The notes under the pieces are model-generated. The model was not told the DNA's origin. It did not search any database and saw only the letters and a list, made by a program, of their open reading frames with translations. 64,000 nt of DNA from a bacterium. GTDB lineage: Bacteria > Patescibacteriota > Minisyncoccia > Phycocordibacterales > UBA9973. Location of the stretch: the NCBI GenBank assembly GCA_037200905.1, contig JBBCGN010000001.1:180795-244794 (forward strand). Direction: 5' to 3'. Positions 1,833 through 59,481 of the stretch are shown in pieces. The first letter of the stretch is position 1, and the number at the start of each line of letters is the position of its first letter. Made by a program: the position numbers and the translations under genes.

Positions 1833-4269
1833 TTAGATATTCGCAGCCGGAGCCGGGATATGCGTAGGAGTTACGGTAGCGGGAGCAGGAGCCTTTTGGG
1901 AAGCAGCGACGTGAGGAAGCGGAGCCGGAGTCACGCCGGGGTTCTGGCTGAAGTTGATCAGGTTCGCAGGGATAGGCAGGTTGAGGGTCGGGCACATGAT
2001 GTTGTTCACTTCAGTCTGAGTAGTCAGGTAGAAGATGCCGGTAGTGTCGCTGATGCCCCACGGAGCGAGGACGTTCGTATTGCGGGCCGCCTGGAAGTTT
2101 CGGACTGCGGCTTCGGTCTGAGGGCCGTAGACGCCGTCGATAACGAGGCCTGCGTTCATGTAGTCATTCAAGAAAGTCTGGACCTTCTGAACGGTGAGCA
2201 CGTCGTTCGCATAGCCTACGCGGAGGTATTTCTCGACGTAGATGCCGCAGGTGTTCGATGCTGCGAGCACCTGGCCAGCCGGGCGTCCGCCGCTCTTGTG
2301 GGAAGAACCGCCATGATGGGTGCTTCCGCCGCCGTTGTCAGTCGAGTTGGTCTCGTCGTCATCGGTAGAAACATAAGATTCAGCGTTATCCGCATTGCCG
2401 TCTGAGTGACAGCCCGGATCGAGGATATCGATAAGGTTGTCGCCGTCGTTGTCGACGGTATCCGAACACTGATACGTGTCATCGCCGCCTCCGCCCTGGC
2501 CGTCATCGGTCTCGTCATTGTCGGTAGGAACGTACGAACCCTCGTTGTCGGGGTTACCATCGGTGTGGCAGCCTGGATCAGCCTGGTCGATCTTGCCGTC
2601 GCCGTCGTCATCGCCAGTATTCGAGCACTGAGGGACGTCGGTCTCGTCGTTATCGTTCGGGTTGTAGGTATCGGCATGAGTCGGATTGCCGTCAGTGTGG
2701 CAGCCCGGATCGAGGATATCGATCTTGCCGTCGCCGTCGTTGTCAGCACCATCAGAACACTGCGGGTTGCCACCGCCGTTGTGGATAGGATTCACGGTGA
2801 TAGTGACCGTGTCGGTAGCCGTAGCGCCGTCGTTGTCGGTAACGGTAAGCTCGAATACGTACGTGCCCTCGATCAAGTCAGTGATAGTAGGGTTTACGGC
2901 ATCATCAGGATCTACGGTCGAAGGGCCTGAAACTTCGGTCCAGACGTATGAGTCGATCGTACCGTCAGAATCGGCAGAGCCGGAAGCATCAAGGTCTACG
3001 GTGTTCGCAGGAAGGGTGATGATCTGGTCAGGACCCGCGTCCGCTACCGGAGCATTGTTATCGTCCTCAACTTCTTTCAATACGTTGAATCCGATGCAGT
3101 TGTAGGTGTGGCCTGCTTCGATCGGATTTACGAAGTCGTAGTTGTCGTAGTTCAAGACATCGTTGTTGCAGTAAAATTCTGCTGAAACGTCGTCGCTGCG
3201 AGGGTCAGTGGTGTCGCCTGAAAATGGGATGTAGTCGGCGTCAAATTCTTCGCGTACCCATACTTTGGCACCGACAGGGACAGTGGTCGTTCCTTCAAAA
3301 GGAGTCCATGCCGCGCCGCCTTCTTCAACCTGGTCGCCCGGGTTCGCGGTGCCGTCAGGAGCCCACTGGAAAGTCCAGTCGCTCTGCTCGTGACAATCGG
3401 AATGAAGGGCGAGGAATGCGTTCGCGGTAGAAGCCGTGACGTTCGGTCCGCCTGCGCCCCAGTTCGGGAGGTCGGACTCGTTGTCGCAGATGATCTTGGT
3501 AGCGACGATAGTAGCGGTCGGAGTGTTGCTAGAGTCGTCTACGCACTGTCCGCTAGCGAGATGCTTGCCGGCAGGGACAGTAGTCTGGACGCCGTCGATG
3601 TTCGGACAGACGTCCGTCGGAGGAGTAGGAGCGCAGTGCTTGTGCTCGACATAGTCGTACGCGATGAGGTTCGCGGTACCGTAGCTCGGGTTCAAGTGGG
3701 GCCTGGACAGGGCCTCCGTAGAGGTCAGTCTGCCAGTTGCAGGCCAGGTCGGAAGACAAAACTGATGTGGTATGTTCCCGGGCTGTAGGTGTCGGTGACG
3801 TTGTCGGTCAAGACTTGGTCTTCGAATGGTCGGATCGTACCTGCATGGGAGTAGCTTGAGAAGCTCACTTCCACAGGGACAAGCGCCGGCAGGGACTATG
3901 AGGGTAGCGTTCGCGCCGTGCACCGTACCAGTAGCAGTCTTGGTGGTACAGCCCTGGTTGCCGCCATGATTGTTGAAATCGTGGCCGAAGGTGGTGACAG
4001 CGTCATTGTCGCCATTGCTGTCATCCTGATGGGTGTCAGCGTCCTGGCTGTCGCCGCCATGTCCGTTATCGGAACCAGCGTCATGGCTGTCATTGGGACG
4101 GGCCATGATTGTTATTGAAAACGCTTACCACTTTCTTGTGGATGGAGCCGTGCACAGCCTTCGAGTGGCTGCTCGCCGAAACGATAGCGGGATGAGCGAA
4201 ATTCGAGATCGCTGCGAGACCGGCAAAGCCGAAAACCAAAACCATTACTGCGTAGTGAAATTTCTTCAT
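1833..4269 (-). CDS. secreted surface protein: signal peptide, PKD/Ig-like domain, 3 Cys/Asp-rich DNDGDG repeats, C-terminal peptidoglycan-binding domain; several apparent frameshifts
   Basis: Track ORF 1833..4106 lacks a signal peptide. The ATG at 4269 gives MKKFHYAVMVLVFGFAGLAAISNFAHPAIVSA in a frame offset by 1 nt, joining near 4100. Between about 3690 and 3890 the plausible protein text jumps through two other frames (LVPVEVSFSSYSHAGTIRPFEDQVLTDNVTDTYSPGTYHISFVF, then SSDLACNWQTDLYGGPVQAP). PKD-like segment: PVADAGPDQIITLPANTVDLDASGSADSDGTIDSYVWT...VFELTVTDNDGATATDTVTITV. PG_binding_1-like segment: VQTFLNDYMNAGLVIDGVYGPQTEAAVRNFQ. Confidence 0.75.
2340..2765 (-). repeat. three tandem coding repeats (~130-160 nt) of a Cys/Asp-rich motif
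   Basis: Repeat 1: QCSDGADNDGDGKIDILDPGCHTDGNP...NDNDETD. Repeat 2: QCSNTGDDDGDGKIDQADPGCHTDGNP...TDNDETD. Repeat 3: QCSDTVDNDGDNLIDILDPGCHSDGNA...TDDDETN. The DNA units start near 2763, 2632 and 2471 on the minus strand. Confidence 0.85.
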
Positions 4270-4361
4270 AAGCTTTATAAATTACTTCTAATAAATTACG
4301 TTTGACCCTTGATAATAAAACTGAAAACGAAACACTTGAAAACACTGCATTTGATTGCCAC

Positions 4362-4390
4362 TAGTATAGCATAATGTCAAACCCATGTCA
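4362..4390 (-). promoter_or_regulatory. sigma70-type promoter for the surface-protein gene
   Basis: On the minus strand, TTGACA (4390-4385), a 17-nt spacer, then TATACT (4367-4362) preceded by TGc (extended -10). It lies about 90 nt upstream of the ATG at 4269. Confidence 0.55.
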
Positions 4391-4632
4391 AGAGTCTCTT
4401 TACAAAGAGGTTAAAAGGATGGGTAATATTTTTAGCATTTCAAGAGCTCAGAACCGCCGCAATCCTTCCTTGAACTCAACCTATCACTCTAGCCGAATAG
4501 GTCAAGAAAAAATGTGAAAAGTCCTTGAGAAATAAGGCTTAAAGGACATGCATCTTTTATATCGGACATGATATGTTTATTGATGTCCTTTATAATCACC
4601 CGCCTGCCGACAGGCAGGGACGCGGCTGAAAT

Positions 4633-4661
4633 TTGACATTCCCGTATCCGTCTGCTATTAT
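4633..4661 (+). promoter_or_regulatory. sigma70-type promoter upstream of 4704
   Basis: TTGACA (4633-4638), 17-nt spacer, TATTAT (4656-4661) with TGc immediately upstream. Confidence 0.6.
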
Positions 4662-4703
4662 AGATGAGTAAATCAATTCGTTCATTACAAAAAAACAATT
4701 CTG

Positions 4704-5387
4704 ATGAAGAAACAAGGCAAGAACGGCTATGACCGCCTGCAGCCTCAGTATTCCCACGGCCCCTTTTCGCTACAACGCTCCCCGGAGGAGTTTTTTTATT
4801 CTCTGGCAGCAGAGAAAGGCACTGCCAAGCCCAAATTGATCAGCAATGGTATTCCCCATGTGGACCTCCCTGCCCTTTTCGTGCCGATCATGACAGATTC
4901 GTTCCGATGGGGAGTCCTGTATTATCGCAACAAGCACACCACGACTGCGTCCGTATTGGACAATGACACACCCTATGATCTCAAGACACCGGCCTCCACG
5001 CTGCTCGTAGCAAAGGCGGCAAATGGGAAAAGGTTGCGGGAAGCGACAACAAAGTTCAGGTATCGCAATGTACTGACTTTCGGGAAACCCATGACTGATG
5101 TCAATTTTGAAAAAAATGAGCTTGAAGCAGTGAGTTGGATCATCGGAGAGCTGACCAAGCTCAAGAAAATGGGTAACTATATCTTGTCCAAAGATATCCC
5201 TGAGGGAGAAGAATACAAGGATTGCATCCTGAAATTCCGCCCTTTCCAGGAAGAAGACTTTTTGCCGGAAGATGTCATACACATCACTCGCGAACAAAAA
5301 AGAGATCCCTGCTCATGTTTAAAAGTTAGAAACCATCAAATCCGTAACCCCCTTACTATCAGGGGGTTATTTTTTTGTTCATCTTGA
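4704..5387 (+). CDS. hypothetical protein
   Basis: 227-aa ORF downstream of a strong promoter, with no recognisable motif. The last ~15 codons read through the terminator hairpin, so the true C-terminus is uncertain. Confidence 0.5.
   Translation: MKKQGKNGYDRLQPQYSHGPFSLQRSPEEFFYSLAAEKGTAKPKLISNGIPHVDLPALFVPIMTDSFRWGVLYYRNKHTTTASVLDNDTPYDLKTPASTLLVAKAANGKRLREATTKFRYRNVLTFGKPMTDVNFEKNELEAVSWIIGELTKLKKMGNYILSKDIPEGEEYKDCILKFRPFQEEDFLPEDVIHITREQKRDPCSCLKVRNHQIRNPLTIRGLFFCSS
5346..5377 (+). terminator. rho-independent terminator
   Basis: AACCCCC (5346-5352) pairs with GGGGGTT (5362-5368), followed by a T7 run. Confidence 0.7.
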
Positions 5388-5644: not shown

Positions 5645-6866
5645 ATGGACGAATTCAACAAAATCATCGAGGGCGAGCTCGCGCACGGCGCGAACCTGTC
5701 TATCATCAACCTGATGGACCATCTCATACAATACGCCTCGGACGTGCACGCCTCCGACATCCACATCGACCCCCAGGAGCACGGCGTGCGCATCCGCTTC
5801 CGCATCGACGGCGTCCTCGAAGACTGCAAGCCCCTGCCGAAAGCCATCCACGGCGAGATCATCTCGCGCATCAAAGTGCTCTCTTCGCTCCGCACGGACG
5901 AGCACGCCGCCCGCCCAGGACGGCCGCTTCCGCAGCACCATCGGCGACAAGACGTCCGTCGACGTGCGCGTGTCCATCGCGCCGACGTATCATGGCGAGA
6001 ACGCCGTGCTCCGGCTCCTCGCCGACAAACGCCGAGAACTTCACCCTCGAGGCCCTCGGCTTCACCAAAGTCGACAGCAGAAGATCCTCTCCGCCATCAA
6101 GCGCCCCTCCGGCATGATCCTCGTCACCGGCCCGACCGGCTCCGGCAAGACCACTACCCTCTACACCCTCATCAAGATGCTCAATTCGAGCGAGATATCC
6201 ATCGTCACTATCGAGGACCCGATCGAGTACGCCGTGGACGGCATCGAGCAGATCCAGGTGAACCCGCGCACGGGCCTCTCGTTCGCGAAACGGCCTGCGC
6301 TCGATCCTTCGCCAGGACCCGAACGTCATCATGGTCGGCGAGATCCGCGACATGGAGACGGCCGGCATCGCCGTGAACACCGCCCTGACCGGACACCTCC
6401 TGCTCTCCACCCTGCACACCAACGACGTCTCTACCACCCTGCCCCGCCTGCTCGACATGAAAGTCGAGCCGTTCCTCGTGGCCTCGACCGTATCCATCGG
6501 CATCGGCCAGCGCCTGGTGCGCAAGATCTGCGAGCACTGCAAGGAGAAGCGCACTATCACCGATGACGCTCTTCGCGACCTCGGCAACCATGTTTCTGCC
6601 AGTACCCTCGGCGATAACAAGGAGTTCTATTACGGCGCGGGCTGCGACAAGTGCGCCGGCACCGGATACAAGGGCCGTCTGGTCATCGCCGAAGTGCTCG
6701 TGGCCGACGAGGAGATGCGCGAAGCCATCGTGCGCAAGTGCTCGGCGAGCGAGATCAAGCAGATCGCCGTCAAGAACGGCATGACGCCGATGCTCGTCGA
6801 CGGATTCCAGAAAGCCCTCCAGGCCTGACCACTGTCGAGGAAGTGCTCCGCGTCACGCACGAATAA
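5645..6866 (+). CDS. pilB: type IV pilus / T2SS assembly ATPase (PilB/GspE family, no N-terminal GSPII domain), broken by about 5 one-nt indels
   Basis: Pieces are track ORFs 5645..6376, 5964..6566, 6331..6828 and 6651..6866. Read across frames the text is ...[90 protein letters not shown]...[10 protein letters not shown]...[29 protein letters not shown]...[10 protein letters not shown]...CEHC...[13 protein letters not shown]...[18 protein letters not shown]. Frame switches occur near 5909-5917, 6027-6029 (AAA), 6066-6085, 6288-6290 (AAA) and 6822-6823 (GG). Confidence 0.9.
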
Positions 6867-6880
6867 TCTTTTACATACTC

Positions 6881-8061
6881 ATGGCCCTCTTCAAGAAGAA
6901 AAAGATCAAGATCATAGCCCAAGACGAACTGCCGGCGAACGAGAAGGTGGTAAAGGCTCCGGTTGCCAAGCCGGCGAAGAAGCGCCCGTTCGAGGGCATG
7001 ACCCTGTTCTCGTCGACGAAGTTCTCCATCAAGAAGCAGACCTTCTTCGCCAAGCGCCTCTCGTTCCTCATCAAGGCCGGGGTACCGATGCTCGAGAGCG
7101 TCATCGTCATCCGCAAGCAGACGAAATCGCGCGGCGAGATAAGGGTCTTCGAGCGCGTCATCGGCGACATCTCGAATGGCCAGACCCTGGCCACCTCTTT
7201 GGGCAAATTCCGCGGCGTCTTCGGCAATTTCGCCATCAACCTCATCAAGGCCGGCGAATCGAGCGGCACGCTCACCCAGAACCTGGCATATCTCGCCGAC
7301 GAGCTGCGCAAGAAAGAGATGCTCAAGAAGAAGATCATGGGCGCCCTGCTCTATCCGATCATCGTGACCGTGGCCACGTTCGGCATCACCGGATTCCTGG
7401 CGGTGTACATCTTTCCGAAGATCCTGCCGATCTTCCAGTCGCTCAACGCCAAGCTTCCCGCTTCGACGCGAGCCATCATCTGGCTCACGGAGACGCTGAA
7501 GAAAGACGGCCTGTGGATCTTCCTCGGGCTGGCGGCCGTCATCACTACTATCGTGCTCCTGGTGAAGAAATCGAAAAAAGTGGCCTTCTTCTGGGACGGG
7601 CTGATACTGCATCTGCCCTTTTCGGCAAGATCGCCAAGAGCTACAACCTGACCAACAGCACCCGTACCCTCGGATTGCTCTTGAAGTCCGGCATCTCGGT
7701 CAACGAAGCCGTGCACATCACCAGCGAGACCACCGAGAACATGCAGTACAAGAAGGCTTTCATCGACCTCAACAAGACCATCATGAAGGGCAAGAGCGTC
7801 TCGGAATACCTGATGCAGAACGAGAGCCTCTTCCCGCCCATGATCGGCCACATGATCTCCATCGGAGAAAAGTCCGGAAACCTCTCCAACACCCTGATCT
7901 ATCTCTCCGAATTCTATGAGAACGAATTCGACGATTTCACCAAGAACCTCTCGAGCGCCATCGAGCCGCTCCTCATGGTCATCATGGGACTCATGGTCGG
8001 CTTCATCGCCATTTCCGTCATCACCCCTATCTATGAAATCACGAACAATCTCAACCGGTAA
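6881..8061 (+). CDS. pilC: type IV pilus platform protein PilC/GspF (two T2SSF domains), one frameshift
   Basis: ORFs 6881..7651 and 7513..8061 join as ...FWDGLILHLP|LFGKIAKSYNLTNSTRTLGLLLKSGISVNEA... at the CCC run 7616-7618. Duplicated GspF-type text is present (FAKRLSFLIKAGVPMLESV / LGLLLKSGISVNEAV), with TM segments. Confidence 0.9.
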
Positions 8062-8554
8062 TAAGGGGTTCACGCTGATCGAAATGCTGATCGTGGTCGG
8101 CATCATCACCATCGTCGGCGGCATCAGCCTGTTCTTCGGCTTCGATTCCCTGCGCGGCTATTCCTTCCACTCGGACAGGGACGTGCTCGTCTCGGCTTTG
8201 CAGCATGCTCGCGCGGAAGCCATGGCGAACATCTGCCGCGGAGCTTCCGGCGACTGCACGACAGGAAAATCGCACGGAGTAAAGATCCGTCCCGATGAAT
8301 ACCCCGACTCGTTCGTCGTTTTCCAAGGCACGAGCTATGCGGCTCATCTGACTACGAGCGACAAGAGCTTCGATGCGGTATTGGAATCCAAGCCGAGCAT
8401 CACCTACTCGGGTGCGGATGAAGTCGTTTTTACCCAGCTCTCTGGCGAGACGAATTCCGCGAACGAGATCGCCATCACCGTCACTGACCACAACACCGGC
8501 AAGACCGATACCATCAGGATAAACCACGCAGGCCAAATAAAATGGGACAACTAA
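8033..8554 (+). CDS. prepilin-type N-terminal cleavage/methylation domain protein (minor pilin, GspH/FimT-like)
   Basis: The internal Met of ORF 7916..8554 gives MKSRTISTGNKG|FTLIEMLIVVGIITIVGG, the class III signal. The start overlaps the pilC 3' end. Confidence 0.8.
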   Translation: MKSRTISTGNKGFTLIEMLIVVGIITIVGGISLFFGFDSLRGYSFHSDRDVLVSALQHARAEAMANICRGASGDCTTGKSHGVKIRPDEYPDSFVVFQGTSYAAHLTTSDKSFDAVLESKPSITYSGADEVVFTQLSGETNSANEIAITVTDHNTGKTDTIRINHAGQIKWDN

Positions 8555-31798: not shown

Positions 31799-31989
31799 GC
31801 GGCCATTCTTGTTTTTAATAGGATTTCTGGTACTATATCTGAGTTGTTTTTCCGCATATTCATTCCGGGGTAGCTGAAATGCCATGGGTATGGCATTTCA
31901 GGGGGCGCAGGCGCGACGGCGCCGAGCCGGGGTAGCGAGATTTTCCAGCAGGAACATACTCGTGACCAGCGGTTCCGCTGAGCTATCTC

Positions 31990-31998
31990 TGATATAAT
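31990..31998 (+). promoter_or_regulatory. extended -10 element upstream of tRNA-Asn
   Basis: TGaTATAAT ends 9 nt before the first tRNA nucleotide. There is no good -35. Confidence 0.35.
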
Positions 31999-32007
31999 AC
32001 ATAACAT

Positions 32008-32082
32008 TCCGGGGTAGCTCAGCGGTAGAGCGGTCGCCTGTTAAGCGATTGGTCGTAGGTTCGATCCCTACCCCCGGAGCCA
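32008..32082 (+). tRNA. tRNA-Asn (anticodon GTT), CCA encoded
   Basis: Cloverleaf read by hand: acceptor TCCGGGG/CCCCGGA, D arm GCTC-AGCGGTA-GAGC, anticodon arm GTCGC-CTGTTAA-GCGAT, T arm GTAGG-TTCGATC-CCTAC, discriminator G plus CCA. Confidence 0.93.
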
Positions 32083-32124
32083 AGTCGTGCTAGCACGAGA
32101 CGCGTTGAAATAATTATTAAACTT

Positions 32125-32805
32125 ATGAAATACTCCCTTGAATTAGCCAAAGACTATTCGCAAAAGAGAGAACAATTTAATGAGACCGATAAGGTTTTGG
32201 TGGACGCACTAGAATCTATTGGTGTTCAAGATAAAAAAATTCTAGACCTTGGCTGTGGCGATGGTCGACATGCTCGGCTTATCAAAGAAATGGGCGCGGC
32301 TCATGTTATCGGTATAGACGTGAATGAAAAAATGATTGAGATTGCCAAAGACAAGAGTGCTGAAAATCCTGACGTTACCTTCTTTGTAGCAGATGGAAGA
32401 AATTTGCCAGCAGAAGACAACTCAACAGATATTGTAGTTTCAAACTTTGTTGTTCACTATTTCCCTGACGCGAAAGAAATTTTTAATGAAATAAGCAGAG
32501 TATTGAAAGACAAGAGTTACTTTATCGGGACTTTTAATATTACAGATGTGGAAGAAGGCTTTGAATATCTTTATAATCAGCAAATGCCAATACGACTTGG
32601 TCAGGGTGAAGGCTCGATAATTGTTCAGAATCTTATTAAGTCTCGCCAGGAGATTGAAGCGGCAATAGCAGAAGCTGGTTTTATAGTTACACAAGAACAG
32701 GAACTGGATCATCCCAACGCTATAGTTGATGACTCGTTCTCTGATAAGCTACATATTCAAAAGCATGCTACCATGCTGGTTTTGCAAAAAAATATCAAGA
32801 AGTAA
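32125..32805 (+). CDS. class I SAM-dependent methyltransferase
   Basis: Motif I ILDLGCGDGRHA, post-I VIGIDVNEKM, and DIVVSNFVVHYF. About 38% GC, well below the flanks. Confidence 0.85.
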   Translation: MKYSLELAKDYSQKREQFNETDKVLVDALESIGVQDKKILDLGCGDGRHARLIKEMGAAHVIGIDVNEKMIEIAKDKSAENPDVTFFVADGRNLPAEDNSTDIVVSNFVVHYFPDAKEIFNEISRVLKDKSYFIGTFNITDVEEGFEYLYNQQMPIRLGQGEGSIIVQNLIKSRQEIEAAIAEAGFIVTQEQELDHPNAIVDDSFSDKLHIQKHATMLVLQKNIKK

Positions 32806-32913
32806 TTGTCGTGCTCAGGATGCGTCGGTTTAGTATATTGGAAAGTACCCAAAAAGCCTTGTGGGGCAAGGCGGTAAAAGTCCCCATCTCAGGACAGCGA
32901 GCAAGCAGATCAA

Positions 32914-32939
32914 GGAAACAGCGATGTTTCCTTTTTTTA
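32914..32939 (+). terminator. rho-independent terminator after the methyltransferase
   Basis: GGAAACA-gcga-TGTTTCC followed by T7. Confidence 0.75.
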
Positions 32940-32947
32940 TTTTCTCT

Positions 32948-32961
32948 ACCCTACCCCGGAG
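32948..32961 (+). repeat. direct repeat of the tRNA-Asn 3' end (att-like)
   Basis: CCCTACCCCGGAGC matches tRNA positions 32067-32081 (CCCTACCCCCGGAGC) except for one C in a C-run. Confidence 0.6.
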
Positions 32962-33144
32962 CATAATTAAAAAACGTCCGGCATTGCTGTGGGACGTTGA
33001 TAATTTCCTGATGTCATTTTCTGAAAATGAGCCAATTCTCCCCTCTTTCATGATTAGGATTGCCTATCACGCTAGCTTGGCAGATCAGGCACGGCCTGAC
33101 TACTTCATTGCAATCCGTACAGAAAAGCCGTAATAATTTTATTA

Positions 33145-33903
33145 TTACGGCTTTATGATTTCTACATGCAGATAAAACGGCTTGCACCATGCCATCCAAT
33201 CGGTATCCGGATTTTCATCGTCGAAATCCTGCCGGGTCGATCGCTTGAGCGCTTTGTACGAATTCGGAAGATATTTGAAGAATTGGTCAGTGTTACTGTT
33301 CAAAGTTCCTCCGCTTTGATTCCAATGGCTGGCATTCAATTCGTCAGGAACGCTTCGCGCTTCCGCGACAGAAAGGGCATTTCTGCAAGTTGGAAAGACA
33401 GGATCTTCGTCAGCAATCAATAGAGACAAAAAAGGTTTTTTCCGGAACCAGAGCACGGTATTTTCGATCTGCGCCGCTTCCGGCACGAAGCGTCTGTCTG
33501 ACGTCTTCGTGAACCAGATCGGAAGAGTATGCATTGACGGCTCCTCTGCCAGAGCGAACTTCGTCTCGAGTTCCAAGATCCAATTGGAAAAATGGTCCGG
33601 CGATGAAGCCGCATGCTCATGCGCCTTATCCGCTCCCCAGAGATCGCGTTCCCCTATCTCGCTGTCGCAGATCAATTTCCAAACGACATCCACGAAAGGA
33701 AATCCGAATTTCGTCCCGAAGAAATGCGCGGATATGTATTCATAGCCTGGGCGGTGCCAGCCGAAGCGCCATTCCGGTTCTTTCATCTTTTCCGGCTTCT
33801 CGAACCAGAGCTGCACGCCGCCTGACTCGAAACCATCGCACGAGAGATCGAACGAATCCCTTTTCGTGATCCACAGACTGACTGTGTCGCTGATAACGCT
33901 CAT
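33145..33903 (-). CDS. hypothetical protein with an internal two-fold repeat (252 aa)
   Basis: Two similar modules: SLWITKRDSF...GVQLWFEKPE and LPIWFTKTSDRRF...NTVLWFRKKPF. No known motif. A bidirectional hairpin lies at 33126-33158. Confidence 0.55.
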   Translation of the reverse strand: MSVISDTVSLWITKRDSFDLSCDGFESGGVQLWFEKPEKMKEPEWRFGWHRPGYEYISAHFFGTKFGFPFVDVVWKLICDSEIGERDLWGADKAHEHAASSPDHFSNWILELETKFALAEEPSMHTLPIWFTKTSDRRFVPEAAQIENTVLWFRKKPFLSLLIADEDPVFPTCRNALSVAEARSVPDELNASHWNQSGGTLNSNTDQFFKYLPNSYKALKRSTRQDFDDENPDTDWMAWCKPFYLHVEIIKP

Positions 33904-34755: not shown

Positions 34756-34781
34756 AGCGCCTTCGGGCGCTTTTTGTTTTT
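34756..34781 (+). terminator. terminator after tRNA-Ala
   Basis: AGCGCC-ttcg-GGCGCT followed by TTTTTGTTTTTT. Confidence 0.8.
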
Positions 34782-34951
34782 TAAGCGGACCGTAAGCGAA
34801 TGAACTGCTTCATTCGCGTCAGGACGAGAAAGACTTTTCCATGCGAGCGAAGCGAGGCGGAAAAGTACCCGCGACCGTAGGTCGAGAGTCCTCCCCTCAC
34901 AACAAAAAAAATGCCATCATAACGATGGCATTTTTGTTTTCTATACAATTT

Positions 34952-39805: not shown

Positions 39806-40282
39806 TCATGTATACGGTTTGGCCAGTTTGAAGGTCTTTATGCATTCCTTCAGCTTTATTTCTTTCATATACTCCAAAAAGTCTTTGGGCAGGGGCGACG
39901 GTCCTACCCAGACGCTCTTTTGTATCATGCTGTAGCCGAATTTTTTGAGATGAAAACGGAACCATTCCCTTTCAGCTTTCTGTGCCACCGGCACGTCAAA
40001 CATCACCAAGAGATCCTTTACTGAACTCATCGTCGCCGGCTTGTGAAAAATCCGGAGCGAGTCTGCCTTTTTCCTCAAATATTCCCTACCCTTAGCGGTC
40101 AAGATAAAACCGTTCAATTCTTTCCTGATCAGGTCATTTTTCGCCAATCTATCGGCACTAGACCGGAGGCTTCTCTTCGAGTAACGGCCAAGCCGAGGCA
40201 CACCGAAAAGATTTACTGGTATCCCTTTATATTTCAGCTGTGTGCGCGAAAGTTCCCTTAAAATTTCTTCCACCAGAGACAT
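39806..40282 (-). CDS. PaaX-like regulator: winged-helix N-terminus plus a Cas2-like/PaaX_C-like ferredoxin-fold domain
   Basis: I take Met45 (MSLVEEILRELSRT) as the start, because upstream codons cross hairpin B. wHTH-like text: RSLRSSADRLAKNDLIRKELNGFILTAKGREYL. C-terminal text LLVMFDVPVAQKAEREWFRFHLKKFGYSMIQKSVWVGPSPLP matches the PaaX/Cas2-like pattern (hhhhaD.P...R..h+..L...GF..h..ShWhsP). Confidence 0.5.
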   Translation of the reverse strand: MSLVEEILRELSRTQLKYKGIPVNLFGVPRLGRYSKRSLRSSADRLAKNDLIRKELNGFILTAKGREYLRKKADSLRIFHKPATMSSVKDLLVMFDVPVAQKAEREWFRFHLKKFGYSMIQKSVWVGPSPLPKDFLEYMKEIKLKECIKTFKLAKPYT

Positions 40283-40306
40283 GCCCGCATCATATCTCAA
40301 ACTGCC

Positions 40307-40346
40307 AAATGACACAAACCCCGCATAGGCAGAGTTTGTGTCATTT
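40307..40346. repeat. hairpin module B (inverted copy of module A)
   Basis: AAATGACACAAAC (40307-40319) pairs perfectly with GTTTGTGTCATTT (40334-40346). The loop contains GCATAGGC, the reverse complement of the loop core of module A. Confidence 0.8.
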
Positions 40347-40429
40347 CGTTGTGCATATGTATAAATAAAAAACGGCCAAATAAAAAAGCTTCCGCCGTGG
40401 AAGCTTTTAAACATGCAAAAATTAAGGAA

Positions 40430-46728: not shown

Positions 46729-48929
46729 TTATTTCGCAATAGCGGCAGCCTCGTCGAACTTCACGGAGAGGAGCTTGGAAGCCCCGTCGGCGCCGATGGT
46801 CACACCGTAGAGTACGCCGGCGCGCGACATGGTCTCGCGGTTGTGGGTGACGACGATGAGCTGGGAATGCTTGGAGAGCTTTTCGATCATGTCGCCGTAC
46901 TTGCGGGAGTTCGCCTCGTCGAGCGCGGCATCGGTCTCGTCGAGCACGAGGAACGGCGGCGGATTGACCTGGGACATGGCGAACAAGAGGGCAATAGAAA
47001 CGAGCGAGCGCTCCCCGCCCGAGAGGGCGTGCAGCTCTTTCACTTTCTTGTGCGGCAACGAGACGTTGATCTCGATGCCTTCGCGCGTCTCTTCCTCGTC
47101 GTCTTCCGGTTCCGGCTCAGGCTCTTCGTCAGGATCTTGTTTGGCGCTTTTCTTGCGCTTCTGTTCCGCCACGATCGAGAGCGAGCCTGTGCCGCCGCCG
47201 AACATGAGCGAGAAGAATTCCTGGAACTCCGTATTTATCTTCCGGATGCCTTCTTTGAACTCGATATCGATCTTTTCTTTCAGTTCTGCCATGAGCGTCT
47301 CGAGCGATTTCATGCTGGCATCAAGGTCGATCATCTCCTTTTCGAGAAAGGCGTCTCGATCGACGGTGTCCTGATACTCTTTCATGGTCTCGCCGACGCC
47401 GATGGAGCCGTAGTCCTCGAGCTTGATCTTCAGGCGCTCGATGTCCTTCTTCAAATCTGCCTTGTTCACATCATCCGGCATGGTCTCCGGCTCGTGCTTG
47501 AACAGAAGGCCGAGTATCGCTACGGCTTCTTTCTGCTCGTTCTTGAAATCCTCGTCGATGCGGGAAAGATTGTCATGACGGCCGCGGATGCCGGCAAGCA
47601 CGGAGTTGAGCTCCGTCTTCTTGATATTCCATTCATAGCGGCGGGCGTTCGCCAAGCTCCTCGTCTCGCGGGATTTCTCGAGGTCTTCCTTGGCCGGGAG
47701 ATTTCTTCGGACAGGTTCTTCTCTTCGTCGGCGATTTCCGCGAGCTTCTTGTTTATCTCGTCGCGGGCGCCTTCGAGTTCGGACAGGTCGATCGTGCTTT
47801 CGCCGCCCTTGTCGAGGCCGTCGATGAGAGCGCGGATGTCTTCAAGCGCATGGCGGAGGGAAATGATATTGTCGTCTTCGAGCGCAGCCTCGATGGTCTT
47901 ATTGAGAGCCTTGATGAATTCGTTTATTTCCGCATCGGTATAGGTACGGTCTTTCTGGGTGCGCAGGGCGGATTCGAGCGAGCCTTCCACGCGGCCGAGC
48001 TTGCGGAGCAGTTCTCCGGATTCCGATTTGAGGGCGAAGATGCGGGTCTCGATGCGGGAAAGAGAATTCTCTTCCTCTCCGCCGCTCGATTTCGATTCGG
48101 CGGGAAGCGAGGCGATCTCGTGCTCGATATCCCTGATCTCGTTCTTCACCTTTTCCTCTTCGCTCCGCATGCTTTCCTTTTCGGAGGCGATATATTCGTT
48201 CTCGATCTTGAAATAGATGGCATAGAGCCCTGCAAGCTCTTCGCGCATGTTCTTTCCTTTCTCTATCTTCTGCACTTGTCCGGCGAGGAATTTCAGGTGC
48301 GGCGCGATCTCGCGGCGGAGGAGCGTCACTTCTTTCATGTTCTCGGCGGTGCGCTCCAGCTTGCGCTCCGAATCGCGGATCTTGTACTGATAGATTTTCA
48401 GGCCGAGGGCATCTTCGATCATCTCGCGGCGGTCTTTCGAAGAAGCGTTCAATATCCTGTCCGCTTCGCCCTGGGAGATGATGTGATGGCTCGACGAGCC
48501 GATATGCACGGAGGAGAGCAGATTATTGATATCCTTCAGGCGCACTTCGCTGCCGTTCAAGATGTATTTGTTGAGGCCGTCCGGATAGACTTCGCGGGAA
48601 ATCGAGACGACGTCGTAATTCAAATTCACTTCTTCCCCTGCTTCGTTCGAGAGCTTGAAAACTTTGTCCTTGTTATTGAAATAGATGGTGACGCTCGCGC
48701 GCGTGCCTTTCGGCAAAGCTTTCGAGCCTTTGAATATGAGATCGGTGCCGGCCTTGCCACGCATGGACTTCATGGACTGCTCGCCGAGCACGAAGCGGAT
48801 GGCCTCCACCACGTTCGACTTGCCGGAGCCGTTCGGGCCGACGACGGAAACTACCGGATGTTCGAATTCAAGCGTAGTTTTTTTGGAGAACGATTTGAAG
48901 CCGTTGATTTCTAAGTTCGCAAGTCGCAT
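46729..48929 (-). CDS. smc: chromosome segregation protein SMC (short form, ~735 aa), one frameshift
   Basis: N-terminal head FKSFSKKTTLEFEHPVVSVVGPNGSGKSNVVEAIRFVLGEQS. C-terminal head LSGGERSLVSIALLFAM and PFLVLDETDAALD. ORFs 47520..48929 and 46729..47655 join as ...EKNLSEEIS.|AKEDLEKSRETRSLANARRYEW near 47695 (GG run). Confidence 0.85.
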
Positions 48930-50995: not shown

Positions 50996-52253
50996 ATGGA
51001 AAATATGGAAAAAGAAGATATCAAGGACGACAGCCGGGACCACAAGAGGCTCGGGCGAGAACTGGAACTCTTCACGTTCAGCGACACCGTAGGCAAGGGC
51101 CTGCCGCTCTGGCTACCGAAGGGCGCCACGGTCCGCCGCGAACTCGAACGCTTCATCGTGGACGAAGAGATCCGCCGCGGATATCTCCATGTCCGCACGC
51201 CGGACATCGCCAAGCTCGACCTCTACAAGAAATCGGGACACTACCCGCACTACAAGGATTCCATGTATGCGCCTATCGTGATCGACGACGAGGAATTCAT
51301 GCTCCGTCCGATGACCTGCCCGCACCACTTCGAACTGTATCTTTCCAAGCCTCACAGCTACCGCGAGCTGCCGATGCGCATCGCGGAACTGGCCCAGCTC
51401 TACCGCTACGAGCAGTCCGGCGAACTGATGGGGCCTCCAGCGCGTGCGCACCTTCTGCCTTTCCGACGCGCACATCATCTGCGCCACGGAAGAACAGGCG
51501 GTGGAGGAGATCGGCAAAGCGCTTGACCTCATCGAATACGTCACGAGCGTGTTCAACCTGAAGCTCGATGTGGATTACCGATACCGACTGTCTCTCGGCG
51601 ACAGGGCCAACACCGAGAAATACTACAAGAACGACGAGGCCTGGGAGAAAGGAGAAGGCCTGCTCCGCCAGCTGATGCAGTCCCGCGGCTCGAAATTCGA
51701 AGAAGCGAAGGATGAGGCGGCGTTCTACGGGCCGAAGATCGACATCCAGATGAAGAATGTGAACGGCAAGGAAGATACTGCCTTTACGGTACAATACGAC
51801 TTCTGCATGCCGAGCCGGTTCAATCTCACCTATATGGGCGAAGACGGCGCGGAGCACGAATGCTTCGTGGTCCACCGTTCCTCCATCGGCGCCATCGAGC
51901 GCATCATGGCTTTTCTCATCGAGAAATACGCCGGCGCCTTCCCTCTCTGGCTCGCGCCGGTACAGGTGAAAGTCATCCCGGTACGCGATACGCATAATGA
52001 ATATGCGAAGAAAATCACGGATGCGCTGAAAGAACACGACATCCGCGTCGACCTGGACGACAGTGATAGCAACCTCGGCGGCAAAGTCCGCGACGCGAAG
52101 AACAACAAGATCCCCTACTGGATCGTCATCGGCGACAAGGAGATCGAAGCGGACAAGGTCACGCTCGAATCCCGCGACCGGGGGCCTCTCGGGCAGCTCT
52201 CGAAAGAAGACTTACTTTCAAAATTTCTCGAAGAGATAAAGAATAGGAAATAA
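50996..52253 (+). CDS. thrS: threonyl-tRNA synthetase, minimal form (catalytic core plus anticodon-binding domain, no TGS/editing domains), one frameshift
   Basis: [30 protein letters not shown]. The frame switches at the GGGG run 51430-51433 into [16 protein letters not shown]...[17 protein letters not shown]...[14 protein letters not shown]. Confidence 0.9.
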
Positions 52254-57663: not shown

Positions 57664-59481
57664 TTATCGCACTTGCCAATTATCCTTAGTTTTTAACTTA
57701 TTTGCAATTGCAGTCATAATTTCATTAATTTCTGCATCGGTCAGGGTACGGCCAAAAGCCTGAAAAACGATCTTGAAAGCATAGGAGACTTTTCCGTCCT
57801 TTTCGAACTCGTCGAAAATGGTCGGGCCTTTTACTGCAAGAGCGCCCATTTCATCCCGAATGACGTTCTCTACCTCCTCTGCCGAGACATCCTCTGGCAC
57901 CCATACGGCGATATCGCGGGCGATAAATGGGAACAATGACCACATTTTAAATGGAGCCAAGCCTGCATGCTCTGGCGAATGGTCTGGCCGAGCCGAAGGC
58001 GAAGGAGAACCGAGGACCTGAGCAAGAGCATCAGGCGAGGCGGACTTAGAAAATTCATCCAAGCTGACTTCTATAATCTTGTCTTTCTCATTGTATGCCA
58101 CCCGCACTTCCTGCTTGTCTTTCAGGAATATGTTTCCGATCTCGAAAATTTTTATTTCTCTCGCGTCGAGAAGCGCCGCATTGATCCTGTTCAGCTTCAG
58201 GCTTTCTTTCAATCCGTCAGTCAGATTCGTACGCATGAATTTCTTGTCCGAAGCGCTCTCGAGCACCTCCACTTCCCCTTTGGCCGCAAAGGCAATGTCA
58301 TGACTTCGGAATATCCTTCAGCAAGCAGCTTACTGCGAGCCCAAGCGATCTTGGCATGCGTTTCATTCACTTTCGGCTTAAAGTCGATTTGCGGAATCTT
58401 CGGCACGAGCTTGTCATAGCCCATGATGCGGCCGATTTCTTCGGCCATGTCTTCCTCGATGACGAGGTCGAGGCGCATCGGCGGCACGGTGATAGTAAAA
58501 GTGCCCATATCGCTCGTATGCTCGATATGATAGCTGTCGAGGATATCCGCGATCTCTTTTGCAGAAACATCGGTACCGAGAATATTGGAGATCTTTTCTT
58601 GGCGGAACGACAGGGTCTTTGCCTCCTGCTTGTTCGGATATATGTCTACGATATCCTCGAAATCCGTGGCGCCGTTCTCTGCCATGAGCGCGCTCATCTC
58701 AAGCATGGAAAAATCACCGAGCGTCGGCGACAGATCATTCTCAAAACGCTTGAGGGCATCGGTAAAGATGTGCGCCGTCTTGCCGGTCTTGCGCACGCTC
58801 GCTGGATCAAAATTCGCAACTTCAATAATGATATTCTTTGTGTTCTCATCCACTTCCGCAATCTTACCGCCCTTTACGCCAGCAATGCTGAGCACATTCT
58901 TTTCATCAGCGATAACTAAATCAACTGGTCGCAATTTTACTTGTTTGTTATCAAGCGTGGTAATCTCTTCGCCTTCGCGGGCCATGCGTATGACGAGCGC
59001 GCCGCTGACCTTGTCGAGATCGAAAGCATGAATAGGCTGGCCGCAGTCGTACATAGTGATGTTTGCGCCGTCGACGACATTGTTGATGCTTCTCTGTCCG
59101 ATTGATTCCAAATGTTTCCTTCACCCAGTCAGGACTTGGCCCGACTTTCACATTGCGCACGATGCGGCCCATGTAACGGCGGCATTTGTCTGATTCCACT
59201 TTGATTTCGAGAGCAGTCGGTCTTGATTCGGGCACTTTATACTTCGGCGTAGGGTCGACATAATCGATACCGAGCTGCGAAGCAACCTCGCGCGCGATAC
59301 CCTGATGGCTAAGCAAATCATGCGCGCGGTTCGGCAGGATGTTGATGTCGAAAATATGATCGTCGCCTTTCTTCTCCACATCTTCAACTTCAGCCAAATG
59401 ATACGTAAAAACATCAGCCAGTTTTTCCGGAGTCAGAACATCCGGTATATACCATTTCAGCCAGTTGTAAGAAATTTTCAT
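57664..59481 (-). CDS. pheT: phenylalanyl-tRNA synthetase beta subunit (short form), two frameshifts
   Basis: MKISYNWLKWYIP...PNRAHDLLSHQGIAREV...PDWVKE| then (AAA run 59110-59112) LESIGQRSINNVVDGANITMYDCGQPIHAFDLDK...AEGYSEVMTLP| then (near 58291) FAAKGEVEVLESASDKKFMRTNL...C-terminal ferredoxin-fold domain. Confidence 0.9.

Follow-up and report, generated by a model that had tools for sequence, protein, structure and literature searches.

Displaced fragments of both ends of a tRNA-Asn gene accompany an imported methyltransferase in a Patescibacteria genome

An intact tRNA gene accompanied by a displaced terminal fragment of itself is the signature by which tRNA-gene islands are mapped, with 3760 cases of the 3' kind and 159 of the 5' kind on record (PMC4383910). 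At one tRNA-Asn gene of a Patescibacteria genome both ends have such fragments, and a single methyltransferase gene lies between the two copies of the 3' end. How did these fragments come to be there, and was the gene between them delivered by integration? The window, by which we mean the whole 64,000-nucleotide (64 kb) stretch of DNA that was analysed, had been the subject of a sequence-only reading, which saw in the 3' copies the attL/attR geometry of an element integrated into the tRNA gene. We conclude that the locus is probably an ordinary integration scar, but one that is unusually small and has no integrase. The features of the tRNA gene and its 3' side are given below; here and in later lists, features with no program or database named were read from the sequence.

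32008-32082, plus strand: intact tRNA-Asn(GTT) gene with CCA encoded (ARAGORN; Rfam RF00005, 70.2 bits)
32066-32080, plus strand: proximal 3' core CCCTACCCCCGGAGC, which runs from the final base of the T loop through the 3' strands of the T and acceptor stems and the discriminator to the first C of CCA
32949-32962, plus strand: displaced 3' fragment CCCTACCCCGGAGC, the tRNA 3' end minus one C, with ATAA next and so without CCA
32973-32998, no strand assigned: hairpin AACGTCC-N12-GGACGTT, preceded by an A run, directly after the displaced 3' fragment

Every repeat named in the sequence-only reading was found in the sequence, and neither 15-mer occurs elsewhere in the 64 kb on either strand, allowing up to two edits. 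The 3' repeat exists as described, but both copies had been placed wrongly by one base (CCCTACCCCCGGAGC at 32066-32080, not 32067-32081; CCCTACCCCGGAGC at 32949-32962, not 32948-32961). Its identity block begins at the end of the T loop, and 868 nt separate the two 3' copies, compared with 129 nt between the 5' copies considered below. In a shuffle test of the tRNA against its downstream flank, 2 of 300 shuffles matched some part of the tRNA as well; when a terminal fragment on the same strand and the correct side is demanded, we estimate the chance at about 1e-3. The 3' copies differ by a single base within a C5 run, and apparent splits in several conserved genes of the window raise the possibility that this is an indel error and that the repeat is really a perfect 15-mer. 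The presence of CCA on the working end and its absence from the displaced fragment were considered as a clue to which end is foreign and set aside, CCA encoding being too variable among these genomes. The hairpin at 32973-32998 is a candidate for the original tRNA trailer, a role suggested by the sequence. Read on the minus strand, the same hairpin resembles a terminator.

Between the 3' copies the following features were recognised.

32125-32805, plus strand: class I SAM-dependent methyltransferase, 226 aa (Pfam Methyltransf_11/25, 1e-25 to 1e-26)
32912-32943, plus strand: intrinsic terminator of the methyltransferase, AAGGAAACAGCGATGTTTCCTT and a T run
32084-32091, plus strand: GTCGTGCT, left copy of an 8-nt direct repeat bracketing the methyltransferase CDS, inside the palindrome TCGTGCTAGCACGA (32085-32098)
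32808-32815, plus strand: GTCGTGCT, right copy of this repeat, 3 nt past the stop codon

The class I assignment is given by scores of 91.7 bits to PF08241 (cutoff 21.2) and 89.4 bits to PF13649, together with the glycine-rich motif I DLGCGDG in the translation. No specific NCBIfam family or equivalog reached its cutoff, and searches for a function gave neither a specific family nor a defence model, nor any close homologue of solved structure. The gene has the terminator that had been claimed for it (32912-32933, then a T run), and its supposed GC content of about 38% was measured at 38.2%, with 33.5% GC3, against 52.7 +/- 4.7% GC and 64 +/- 12% GC3 for the other genes of the window; its GC thus lies three standard deviations under theirs, in a genome of 52% GC. 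A foreign origin, which the sequence-only reading had also proposed, is upheld both by this outlying composition and by 82-83% DNA identity to genes on Patescibacteria contigs of 37-42% GC that are otherwise unlike the window. As a housekeeping comparison, PurM of this genome has no relative above 69% amino-acid identity. The methyltransferase family occurs in ten gene contexts, the window and nine others, so the gene moves between genomes; taken with the low GC and the high DNA identity, this marks it as a recent horizontal import from a low-GC Patescibacteria lineage. Its recurrent neighbours (NUDIX, nucleoside deoxyribosyltransferase, LOG) point to nucleosides or nucleotides as candidate substrates. 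Relatives in viral contigs reach at most 33% identity.

The extent of the imported DNA can be compared with the position of the repeat. Homology of donor type is confined to the CDS and about 17 nt upstream, and neither the homology nor the low GC, both of which stop at the CDS, reaches the repeat 143 nt further on; the 143 nt from the stop codon to the 3' fragment have 45.5% GC, a normal intergenic value (44 +/- 9%). The attL/attR-type geometry therefore stands as far as the fragments are concerned, which are terminal, in the same orientation and on the correct sides, with the methyltransferase as the sole gene between the 3' copies, but the expectation that low GC and donor homology extend to the repeat does not. 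Because both stop at the CDS, the methyltransferase could have entered a scar that was already there.

This boundary is an argument for a different history, in which illegitimate or microhomology-mediated recombination brought the methyltransferase in, for example when DNA was taken up by natural transformation. The insert would then be the 724 bp bracketed by GTCGTGCT (32084-91, 32808-15), and the downstream 14-mer an older unrelated scar or a product of chance. We consider such an entry possible but rather unlikely. The 8-mer is placed exactly at the limits of foreign composition and homology to the other methyltransferase loci, the window carries type IV pilus/competence-type genes (pilins, T2SSE, T2SSF), and natural competence is documented in Patescibacteria (PMC10633639, PMC12455944). 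However, the chance of an 8-mer common to two 45-nt flanks is about 0.04, which makes it a much weaker match than the tRNA fragment, and this history leaves unexplained why the same methyltransferase family lies between a tRNA-Asn gene and its displaced fragment at another locus, L012. The two accounts would also differ in a relative that lacks the gene: under integration, but not under microhomology-mediated entry, the site at the 14-mer would be empty, with ATAATTAAAAAACGTCC directly after the tRNA 3' end and no 143-nt spacer.

On L012, one of the low-GC Patescibacteria contigs that carry the gene, a tRNA-Asn gene (2138-2210) is followed by an 80% identical methyltransferase (4001-4678), in the same order and orientation as in the window. 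Some 3 kb beyond the tRNA gene, at 5217-5235, its 3' end recurs as an 18/19 copy, which none of 300 shuffles equalled, and a second, more decayed 3' fragment at 5781-5800 is the older of the two. The first fragment reads CCTAC where the tRNA of L012 itself reads CCTGC, and therefore was not copied from the resident gene. The two loci might have been expected to share the arms of one element, and this was rejected: similarity is limited to the tRNA and the methyltransferase, and the arms of the islets are unlike. We estimate at about 0.03 the chance that one of the nine other contexts falls within 3 kb downstream of the single tRNA-Asn gene. L012 thus repeats the layout of the window independently. 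A third locus, L029, has a tRNA-Ser gene preceded by a perfect 5' fragment of 30 nt and followed by a perfect 3' fragment of 19 nt, the latter being seen again in independent assemblies. Here the tRNA and its 3' fragment are 191 nt apart with no gene inside; an empty scar could therefore have predated the methyltransferase in the window, a point in favour of entry by microhomology.

The same two loci, which come from independent samples, bear on whether the pattern is real at all. The repeats might be coincidental, or the locus an assembly artefact, either a chimera of two organisms joined at a conserved tRNA or a local misassembly, and we consider this very improbable. The sequence is a metagenome-assembled genome in which SMC, PheT and a class II aaRS look split, suggesting indel errors, and the 3' repeat taken alone was equalled in about 2 of 300 shuffles. 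Against this, a second assembly of the run (a 17.9-kb Logan contig) matches it perfectly for the 12.6 kb that span the locus; a chimera would produce a single switch of genome, but beyond 33145 both GC and gene content are again of the host type; the 14-15-nt repeats are below assembly k-mer length; and L012 and L029 show the same pattern. Coincidence is further opposed by the upstream side of the gene, where a 15-mer is accompanied by two more copies within 150 nt. Its features are these.

31809-31836, plus strand: putative ancestral-type tRNA-Asn promoter, now upstream of copy A, with a -35-like TTGTTT at 31809-14, a 16-nt spacer, TG at 31828-29 and a -10 box TACTAT at 31831-36
31861-31875, plus strand: displaced 5' fragment, copy A, CATTCCGGGGTAGCT, comprising 3 nt of leader and tRNA nt 1-12; this 15-mer is identical to 32005-32019 and, within two edits, has no further match in the window
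31874-31901, no strand assigned: hairpin with a perfect 12-bp stem, CTGAAATGCCAT-GGGT-ATGGCATTTCAG (stems 31874-31885 and 31890-31901), at the left edge of the 129-bp insert
31876-32004, plus strand: segment between the two 5' copies, 129 bp, 56% GC, without a homologue in the window or any fetched locus
31927-31936, plus strand: partial 5' copy B, CCGGGGTAGC, tRNA nt 2-11, a direct repeat
31975-31985, minus strand: inverted copy CCGCTGAGCTA, the reverse complement of tRNA nt 8-18 (32015-32025), absent from the sequence-only reading
31990-31998, plus strand: putative extended -10 promoter TGATATAAT, 9 nt before tRNA +1

The 5' repeats had been described accurately: CATTCCGGGGTAGCT at 31861-31875 matches 32005-32019 exactly, and CCGGGGTAGC starts at 31865, 31927 and 32009. 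A perfect hairpin does lie between the 5' copies, but its stem is 12 bp long and not 10; it shares 2 nt with the end of the upstream 15-mer, is followed by no U/T run on either strand, and is among only about three perfect hairpins of at least 12 bp in the 64 kb. The inverted 11-mer belongs to an 18-nt inverted repeat of 83% identity (31975-31992 versus 32008-32025), with the -10 box inside the loop, and CCGGGGTAG or its complement has four sites in the 64 kb, all inside 1.1 kb. When the tRNA was compared with its upstream flank, 1 of 300 shuffles scored as well on the 12-nt tRNA part, a weaker match than the leader-containing 15-mer; that 15-mer with two further copies within 150 nt cannot be chance.

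Alignment with L012 indicates what the upstream copy may represent. The stretch 31805-31856 aligns to the promoter and leader of the L012 tRNA-Asn (TTGaTTTT..GTACTATA..CGCATAT), with about 1 in 200 shuffles as good (p ~0.005), while no such alignment is obtained for the sequence immediately before the intact window tRNA (p 0.77). The native promoter thus appears to have been displaced with copy A, and the intact gene would now use a different, extended -10 promoter, from which transcription is predicted to start near 32005, the first base of the repeated 15-mer. The 5' repeats have the look of a scar of their own, distinct from the 3' one, whose formation moved the native promoter away. Several other explanations of these sequences were rejected. 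Tandem duplication was discarded because the sequences upstream of the two 5' copies are unrelated, as is likewise the case at L029; templated insertion has no source within the 64 kb; and the idea of a known RNA family fails, Rfam giving no match for the 129-bp segment and only the two tRNAs otherwise, with sub-threshold matches that merely mirror the inverted repeat.

The flanking copies might alternatively be functional RNA elements, a leader and trailer that mimic or pair with the tRNA ends and control processing or expression of a tRNA-methyltransferase co-transcript. The segment 31840-32082 is predicted to fold with unusual stability (z = -6.3), and the predicted structure joins the upstream copy to the tRNA 3' end, and 31975-31992 to the tRNA 5' end, by base pairing. 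A stretch of 10 nt in copy A is the perfect complement of one in the distal fragment. Such complementarity is, however, automatic once the strands of the acceptor stem are copied, the z-score takes in the tRNA itself and the perfect hairpin, and no Rfam family matches. Furthermore, the leader copies precede the predicted active promoter and may therefore be absent from the tRNA transcript. We consider a role of this kind highly improbable.

We regard as somewhat probable a history in which the tRNA gene was a recombination target at both ends and retained the scars, DNA carrying a tRNA 3' end having recombined downstream, with one or two similar events at the 5' end. Downstream, incoming DNA with a copy of the tRNA-Asn 3' end would have recombined at the junction of T stem and acceptor stem in the resident gene. 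The incoming copy would complete the working tRNA, with CCA encoded, and the resident 3' end would have been displaced 0.88 kb downstream to 32949-32962; what remains between the 3' copies would be one imported low-GC SAM methyltransferase and its terminator. The recombinase may have been deleted, or supplied in trans, as for integrase-less, att-flanked elements. Upstream, one or two like events would have moved the original promoter and tRNA nt 1-12 to 31861-31875, leaving a 129-bp remnant whose extended -10 box would now drive the tRNA. Site-specific recombination as the maker of the repeats, this order of events and the choice of active promoter are what we infer from the arrangement. Integration predicts an empty site of the form ...CCCTACCCCCGGAGC-ATAATTAAAAAACG, without 32081-32948, and would give a circular junction of the form ...TTTTCTCTA-CCCTACCCCCGGAGCCAAGTCG.

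Several observations argue against integration. The inserts (0.88 kb and 129 bp) are far smaller than functional integrative elements of any kind; the 3' identity block is a short one of 14-15 nt that leaves out the T loop and contains an indel; foreign composition and donor homology end at the CDS; and a simple integration leaves the inverted 11-mer and the hairpin unexplained. The remark that no integrase remains was correct: no integrase or recombinase domain was found in some 70 ORFs scanned across the window, where the methyltransferase is the only ORF of the candidate island with a domain, or in the islets of L012 and L029. An unoccupied tRNA-Asn site was sought and not found, because the databases hold no close relatives of the genome. 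A PurM scan of species-representative genomes returned one relative, 51% identical and without synteny; the best PurM relatives anywhere are 69% identical, on contigs that end too early or are not syntenic. The downstream neighbour (33145-33903) is an ORFan, with no homologue among 5.8 billion proteins. All 17 matches to the tRNA-Asn 3' motif in viral contigs were full tRNA genes, and none an attP. A multi-copy element was also rejected, no insert segment recurring in the window or in 50 fetched loci, as was a MITE or insertion sequence: the insert ends have no terminal inverted repeats, the repeats are 15 and 14 nt long, and no further copy exists in the window or the 50 loci.

A broader route can be imagined, in which tRNA genes of Patescibacteria are two-sided landing pads for very small integrase-free insertions (48-870 bp), each bringing a replacement tRNA end together with either a promoter or one cargo gene. 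Gene capture of this kind would be templated by tRNA ends, perhaps through natural transformation and short-homology recombination, and we think it decidedly unlikely. If true, it would be a process separate from classical integrase-borne islands, and it would account for displaced end fragments without a nearby recombinase at three unrelated loci (the tRNA-Asn of the window, that of L012 and the tRNA-Ser of L029).

Taken alone, the locus is probably an ordinary integration scar of a known type. It nevertheless offers a clean, small case of single-gene acquisition by a genome-reduced, uncultured bacterium, the gene being a recent import at a tRNA gene, with its boundary marked to the base. Horizontal transfer among Patescibacteria is reported to be frequent in a study that never mentions tRNA genes or integrases (PMC12455944). 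Candidates shorter than 2 kb or lacking an integrase are dropped by standard island finders, and scars of this kind therefore escape counting. Were a survey to show them to be common, tRNA ends would be a main entry point for accessory genes in the phylum.

The locus may finally be set beside three known systems. Islander (PMC4383910) maps islands by an intact tRNA gene with a cognate fragment, a tyrosine integrase inside and a length of 2-200 kb. Here, the intact gene (32008-32082) and its fragments (3' 32949-62; 5' 31861-75) share a replicon; the terminal 3' block (about nt 60-74) lies downstream and the 5' block (-3 to +12) upstream, both on the plus strand. No tyrosine integrase was found in the candidate island, and at 868 nt and 129 nt the lengths fall outside the range. 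The enclosed DNA is of foreign origin by its GC and GC3 and by its identity of 82-83% to low-GC genomes in unrelated contexts. The locus therefore resembles the tRNA islands of tyrosine integrases (Islander; sublocation classes of Williams 2002) in its intact tRNA, its terminal fragment, which shares the tRNA's orientation and lies on the correct side, and the foreign cargo between; an identity block running from the T loop/T stem edge to the 3' end, the 5'-fragment variant and tandem fragments, as at L012, are likewise known from them. It differs in lacking an integrase, in inserts of 0.88 kb and 129 bp against a 2-kb minimum, in an identity block of only 14-15 nt with an indel, and in that both ends of one tRNA are affected.

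In homology-facilitated illegitimate recombination during natural transformation, the usual outcome is loss of resident DNA without a direct repeat. The locus is like it in that a conserved anchor, here the tRNA gene, would have captured adjacent foreign DNA in a competent bacterium, with the gain of a single gene and no mobile-element genes, but unlike it in the duplicated anchor end, which that process alone does not produce.

Cis-mobilizable elements (CIMEs), described in streptococci, are what remains of integrative elements when the integrase is absent but the flanking att sites persist. The described examples are much larger than the islet, and neither a cognate integrative element nor its integrase was identified in the 64 kb of the genome or in relatives. 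As in a CIME, however, direct repeats resembling attL and attR flank the islet at a conserved target, and it holds cargo but no recombination or transfer genes. The best reading of the locus is that it resembles a CIME without an integrase, formed by the mechanism suggested above, and the islet could be moved in trans by the integrase of a related element.

The window holds a tRNA-Asn(GTT) gene with an encoded CCA, scored at 70 bits (ARAGORN, Rfam), both ends of which recur in its flanks. The features of the locus are as follows.

31861-31875: exact second copy of the 15-mer CATTCCGGGGTAGCT (displaced 5' copy)
31874-31885 and 31890-31901: perfect hairpin after the upstream copy, 12-bp stem
31927-31936: CCGGGGTAGC again, a partial copy
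31975-31985: inverted copy of tRNA nucleotides 8-18
31990-31998: perfect extended -10 box TGATATAAT, preceding the intact tRNA
32005-32019: CATTCCGGGGTAGCT, comprising 3 nt of leader and tRNA nucleotides 1-12
32008-32082: intact tRNA-Asn(GTT)
32066-32080: tRNA 3' end CCCTACCCCCGGAGC
32084-32091 and 32808-32815: 8-nt repeat GTCGTGCT
32125-32805: 226-aa class I SAM-dependent methyltransferase
32912-32933: methyltransferase terminator
32949-32962: second copy of the 3' end, minus one C
33145-33903, minus strand: 252-aa ORF just past the second 3' copy

Neither 15-mer has a further match with two or fewer edits on either strand of the whole 64 kb, and CCGGGGTAG or its complement occurs there at four sites only, those at the tRNA-Asn locus. 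When the tRNA was compared with shuffled flanks, an equally good match arose in 1/300 cases upstream and 2/300 downstream; taking its leader bases and the two further copies into account makes the upstream repeat far stronger, and for the downstream repeat we estimate a chance of roughly 1e-3 if the match has to be terminal and to lie on the right strand and side of the tRNA. The left edge of the 3' identity block is the T-loop end, and the single-base difference between the 3' copies falls within a C5 run and could be spurious. The sequence-only reading had described the 15-mer and 10-mer repeats correctly, as well as a perfect hairpin, which it made 10 bp long, and a repeat of the 3' end, for which both sets of coordinates were off by one base. 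That the flanking copies act as functional RNA has as its sole basis their complementarity to the tRNA, which is automatic once acceptor-stem strands are copied, and we consider this very unlikely.

No gene other than the methyltransferase lies between the 3' copies. Pfam places it in Methyltransf_11/25 (1e-25 to 1e-26); none of the specific NCBIfam families was reached, and no close homologue with a solved structure turned up. Its GC content of 38.2% (GC3 33.5%) lies well below that of the other window genes (n = 38; 52.7 +/- 4.7%, GC3 64 +/- 12%), as had been noted for a lone gene of ~38% GC. The nearest relatives, with 78-83% protein and 82-83% DNA identity, stand on Patescibacteria contigs of 31-45% GC, whereas the best relative anywhere of the housekeeping protein PurM from the same genome reaches 69% amino-acid identity. 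Composition and homology, both proposed earlier as checks on foreign origin, thus indicate that the gene is a recent import from a low-GC donor lineage within the same phylum, in agreement with a report that names other members of the phylum as the source of most transfers into Patescibacteria (PMC12455944). It occupies ten distinct gene neighbourhoods, the window included. Recurrent neighbours (at the homologue-bearing loci L007, L028, L050, L012 and L001) are NUDIX hydrolases, nucleoside 2-deoxyribosyltransferase/DUF4406, a LOG-methyltransferase fusion, Lactamase_B_3 and toxin-antitoxin genes, which hint that the enzyme acts on nucleosides or nucleotides and that its gene resides in variable regions. 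In two low-GC relatives (L001 ~880-900; L004 ~1600-1620) a TATAAT box lies 7-8 nt before the start codon, pointing to a leaderless mRNA; the window copy has this box in decayed form (TTATTAAAC, 32108-32124) and, lying 42 nt past the tRNA, may be co-transcribed with it. A second low-GC tract (61826-63981; about 35% GC, 31% GC3), with no tRNA nearby, encodes an AddA/UvrD-type helicase-nuclease (PDDEXK_1 and UvrD_C, the UvrD N-terminal piece being in a separate ORF) that may be another imported or atypical gene.

DNA homology to the relatives is limited to the methyltransferase CDS and ~17 nt upstream. Foreign composition likewise ends at the CDS, the 143 nt from stop codon to fragment having ordinary intergenic GC (45.5% vs 44 +/- 9%), and the 8-nt repeat brackets the CDS exactly (chance about 0.04); thus illegitimate recombination, perhaps following DNA uptake, could have placed the gene in a scar that was already there and empty. 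Pilins and pilus ATPases are encoded in the window, and members of the phylum are known to be competent (PMC10633639). We regard such entry as unlikely, if a serious contender, and it leaves unexplained the parallel at a second locus, L012 (GCA_964952985.1, CBBRFI010000016.1). Here an 80%-identical methyltransferase (4001-4678) lies 1.8 kb downstream of a tRNA-Asn in the same orientation, and is followed by a copy, matching at 18/19 positions, of the final 19 nt of tRNA-Asn, from T loop to discriminator (5217-5235; equalled in 0/300 shuffles), and by a second, more decayed 3' fragment (5781-5800), as tandem scars. The first fragment reads CCTAC where the L012 tRNA reads CCTGC, so it was not copied from the resident gene. 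The 3-kb interval encodes a nucleotidyltransferase, a DUF4406-like protein, the methyltransferase and a small ORF, with no integrase; all that L012 has in common with the window is the tRNA and the methyltransferase. Just past the tandem fragments lies an AbiEii/AbiEi toxin-antitoxin pair (6855-8149).

A third locus, L029 (ERZ27293400 k141_999874; contig GC 31.5%), has its methyltransferase 2.2 kb downstream of a tRNA-Ser(GCT) at 3508-3599. Perfect copies of this tRNA's 5' end (30 nt) and 3' end (19 nt) lie 48 nt upstream and 191 nt downstream respectively (3430-3809), the latter past both the tRNA terminator and a GC-rich segment of 150 nt; two independent assemblies agree exactly in the downstream part. 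A strong promoter is predicted before the 5' fragment and not before the intact tRNA-Ser, a layout that matches that of the window tRNA-Asn. In the window, TTGTTT, a 16-nt spacer, TG, TACTAT and then CGCATAT stand within the 50 nt before the displaced 5' copy. This region aligns to the promoter and leader of the functional L012 tRNA-Asn (p about 0.005), whereas the sequence just before the intact window tRNA does not (p 0.77) and instead holds the extended -10 box, whose predicted start site is close to position 1 of the repeated 15-mer; the upstream copy thus has the look of the original gene start with its native promoter. The 129-bp insert would have displaced both and would now supply the tRNA promoter, and the partial copy at 31927 could stem from an earlier event. 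Such displacement accounts for neither the inverted 11-mer nor the hairpin. The window contains two instances of the hairpin stem AAATGCCAT/ATGGCATTT, one by the displaced 5' fragment (31877-31898) and one in a bidirectional terminator 170 nt downstream of tRNA-Ala (34909-34933); no such pair is expected in shuffles, with only the core TGCCAT specific once terminator-typical A/T runs are discounted. Positions 34775-34905, which separate the tRNA-Ala terminator from the one after it, weakly resemble the GC-rich insert of L029 (GAGCGxAGCGA..GAAAA..GCGACCGT; p about 0.016) and contain no significant tRNA-Ala fragment.

No close relatives of the window genome were found in the databases, and the ORF at 33145-33903 has no homologue but itself among 5.8 billion proteins. 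Several conserved genes are split into overlapping ORFs in different frames (SMC, 46729-48929; PheT, the PheRS beta subunit, 57664-59111; a class II aaRS, 50996-52253; a T2SSE ATPase, 5645-6376), which suggests assembly indel errors or real pseudogenes; the overlaps hold no homopolymer runs of at least 5 nt. That the locus itself is an artefact is nevertheless very unlikely indeed, since a second assembly shows the same sequence over 12.6 kb, composition is again of host type after 33145 (GC 50.5% in that ORF) and the repeats are shorter than assembly k-mers. Amid housekeeping genes (TrmD, S16), 39806-40414 on the minus strand encodes a 202-aa protein with a Cas2-like/PaaX_M domain.

An island that integrates into a tRNA gene brings with it a duplicate of one end of its target, so that the gene is made whole again and the original end is moved away; the tRNA gene and the terminal fragment therefore mark the island limits (PMC4383910). 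Islands with 3' fragments dominate (3760), and the 5' kind is known (159) (PMC4383910). At both ends of the window tRNA, the fragments are of the type, orientation and side described for islands; the inserts (0.88 kb and 129 bp) fall below island size, and about 70 ORFs scanned across the 64 kb contain no integrase domain; the sequence-only reading had likewise noted that no integrase remains in the element. We therefore favour, with some reserve, recombination scars without an integrase, whose recombinase would have been lost by deletion or provided in trans. Of the att-like integrated element first proposed, the import and the geometry stand, replicated in a second genome, while integrase-mediated integration is only inferred. 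Scars of tRNA integration are a known kind of locus, of which this is a further case, notable chiefly for its small size, its scars at both tRNA ends and its lineage. With tRNA-gene islands it shares the terminal fragments, their orientation and their side, and differs in its small inserts and lack of an integrase; with cis-mobilizable elements it shares similar scars, without a recombinase of its own.
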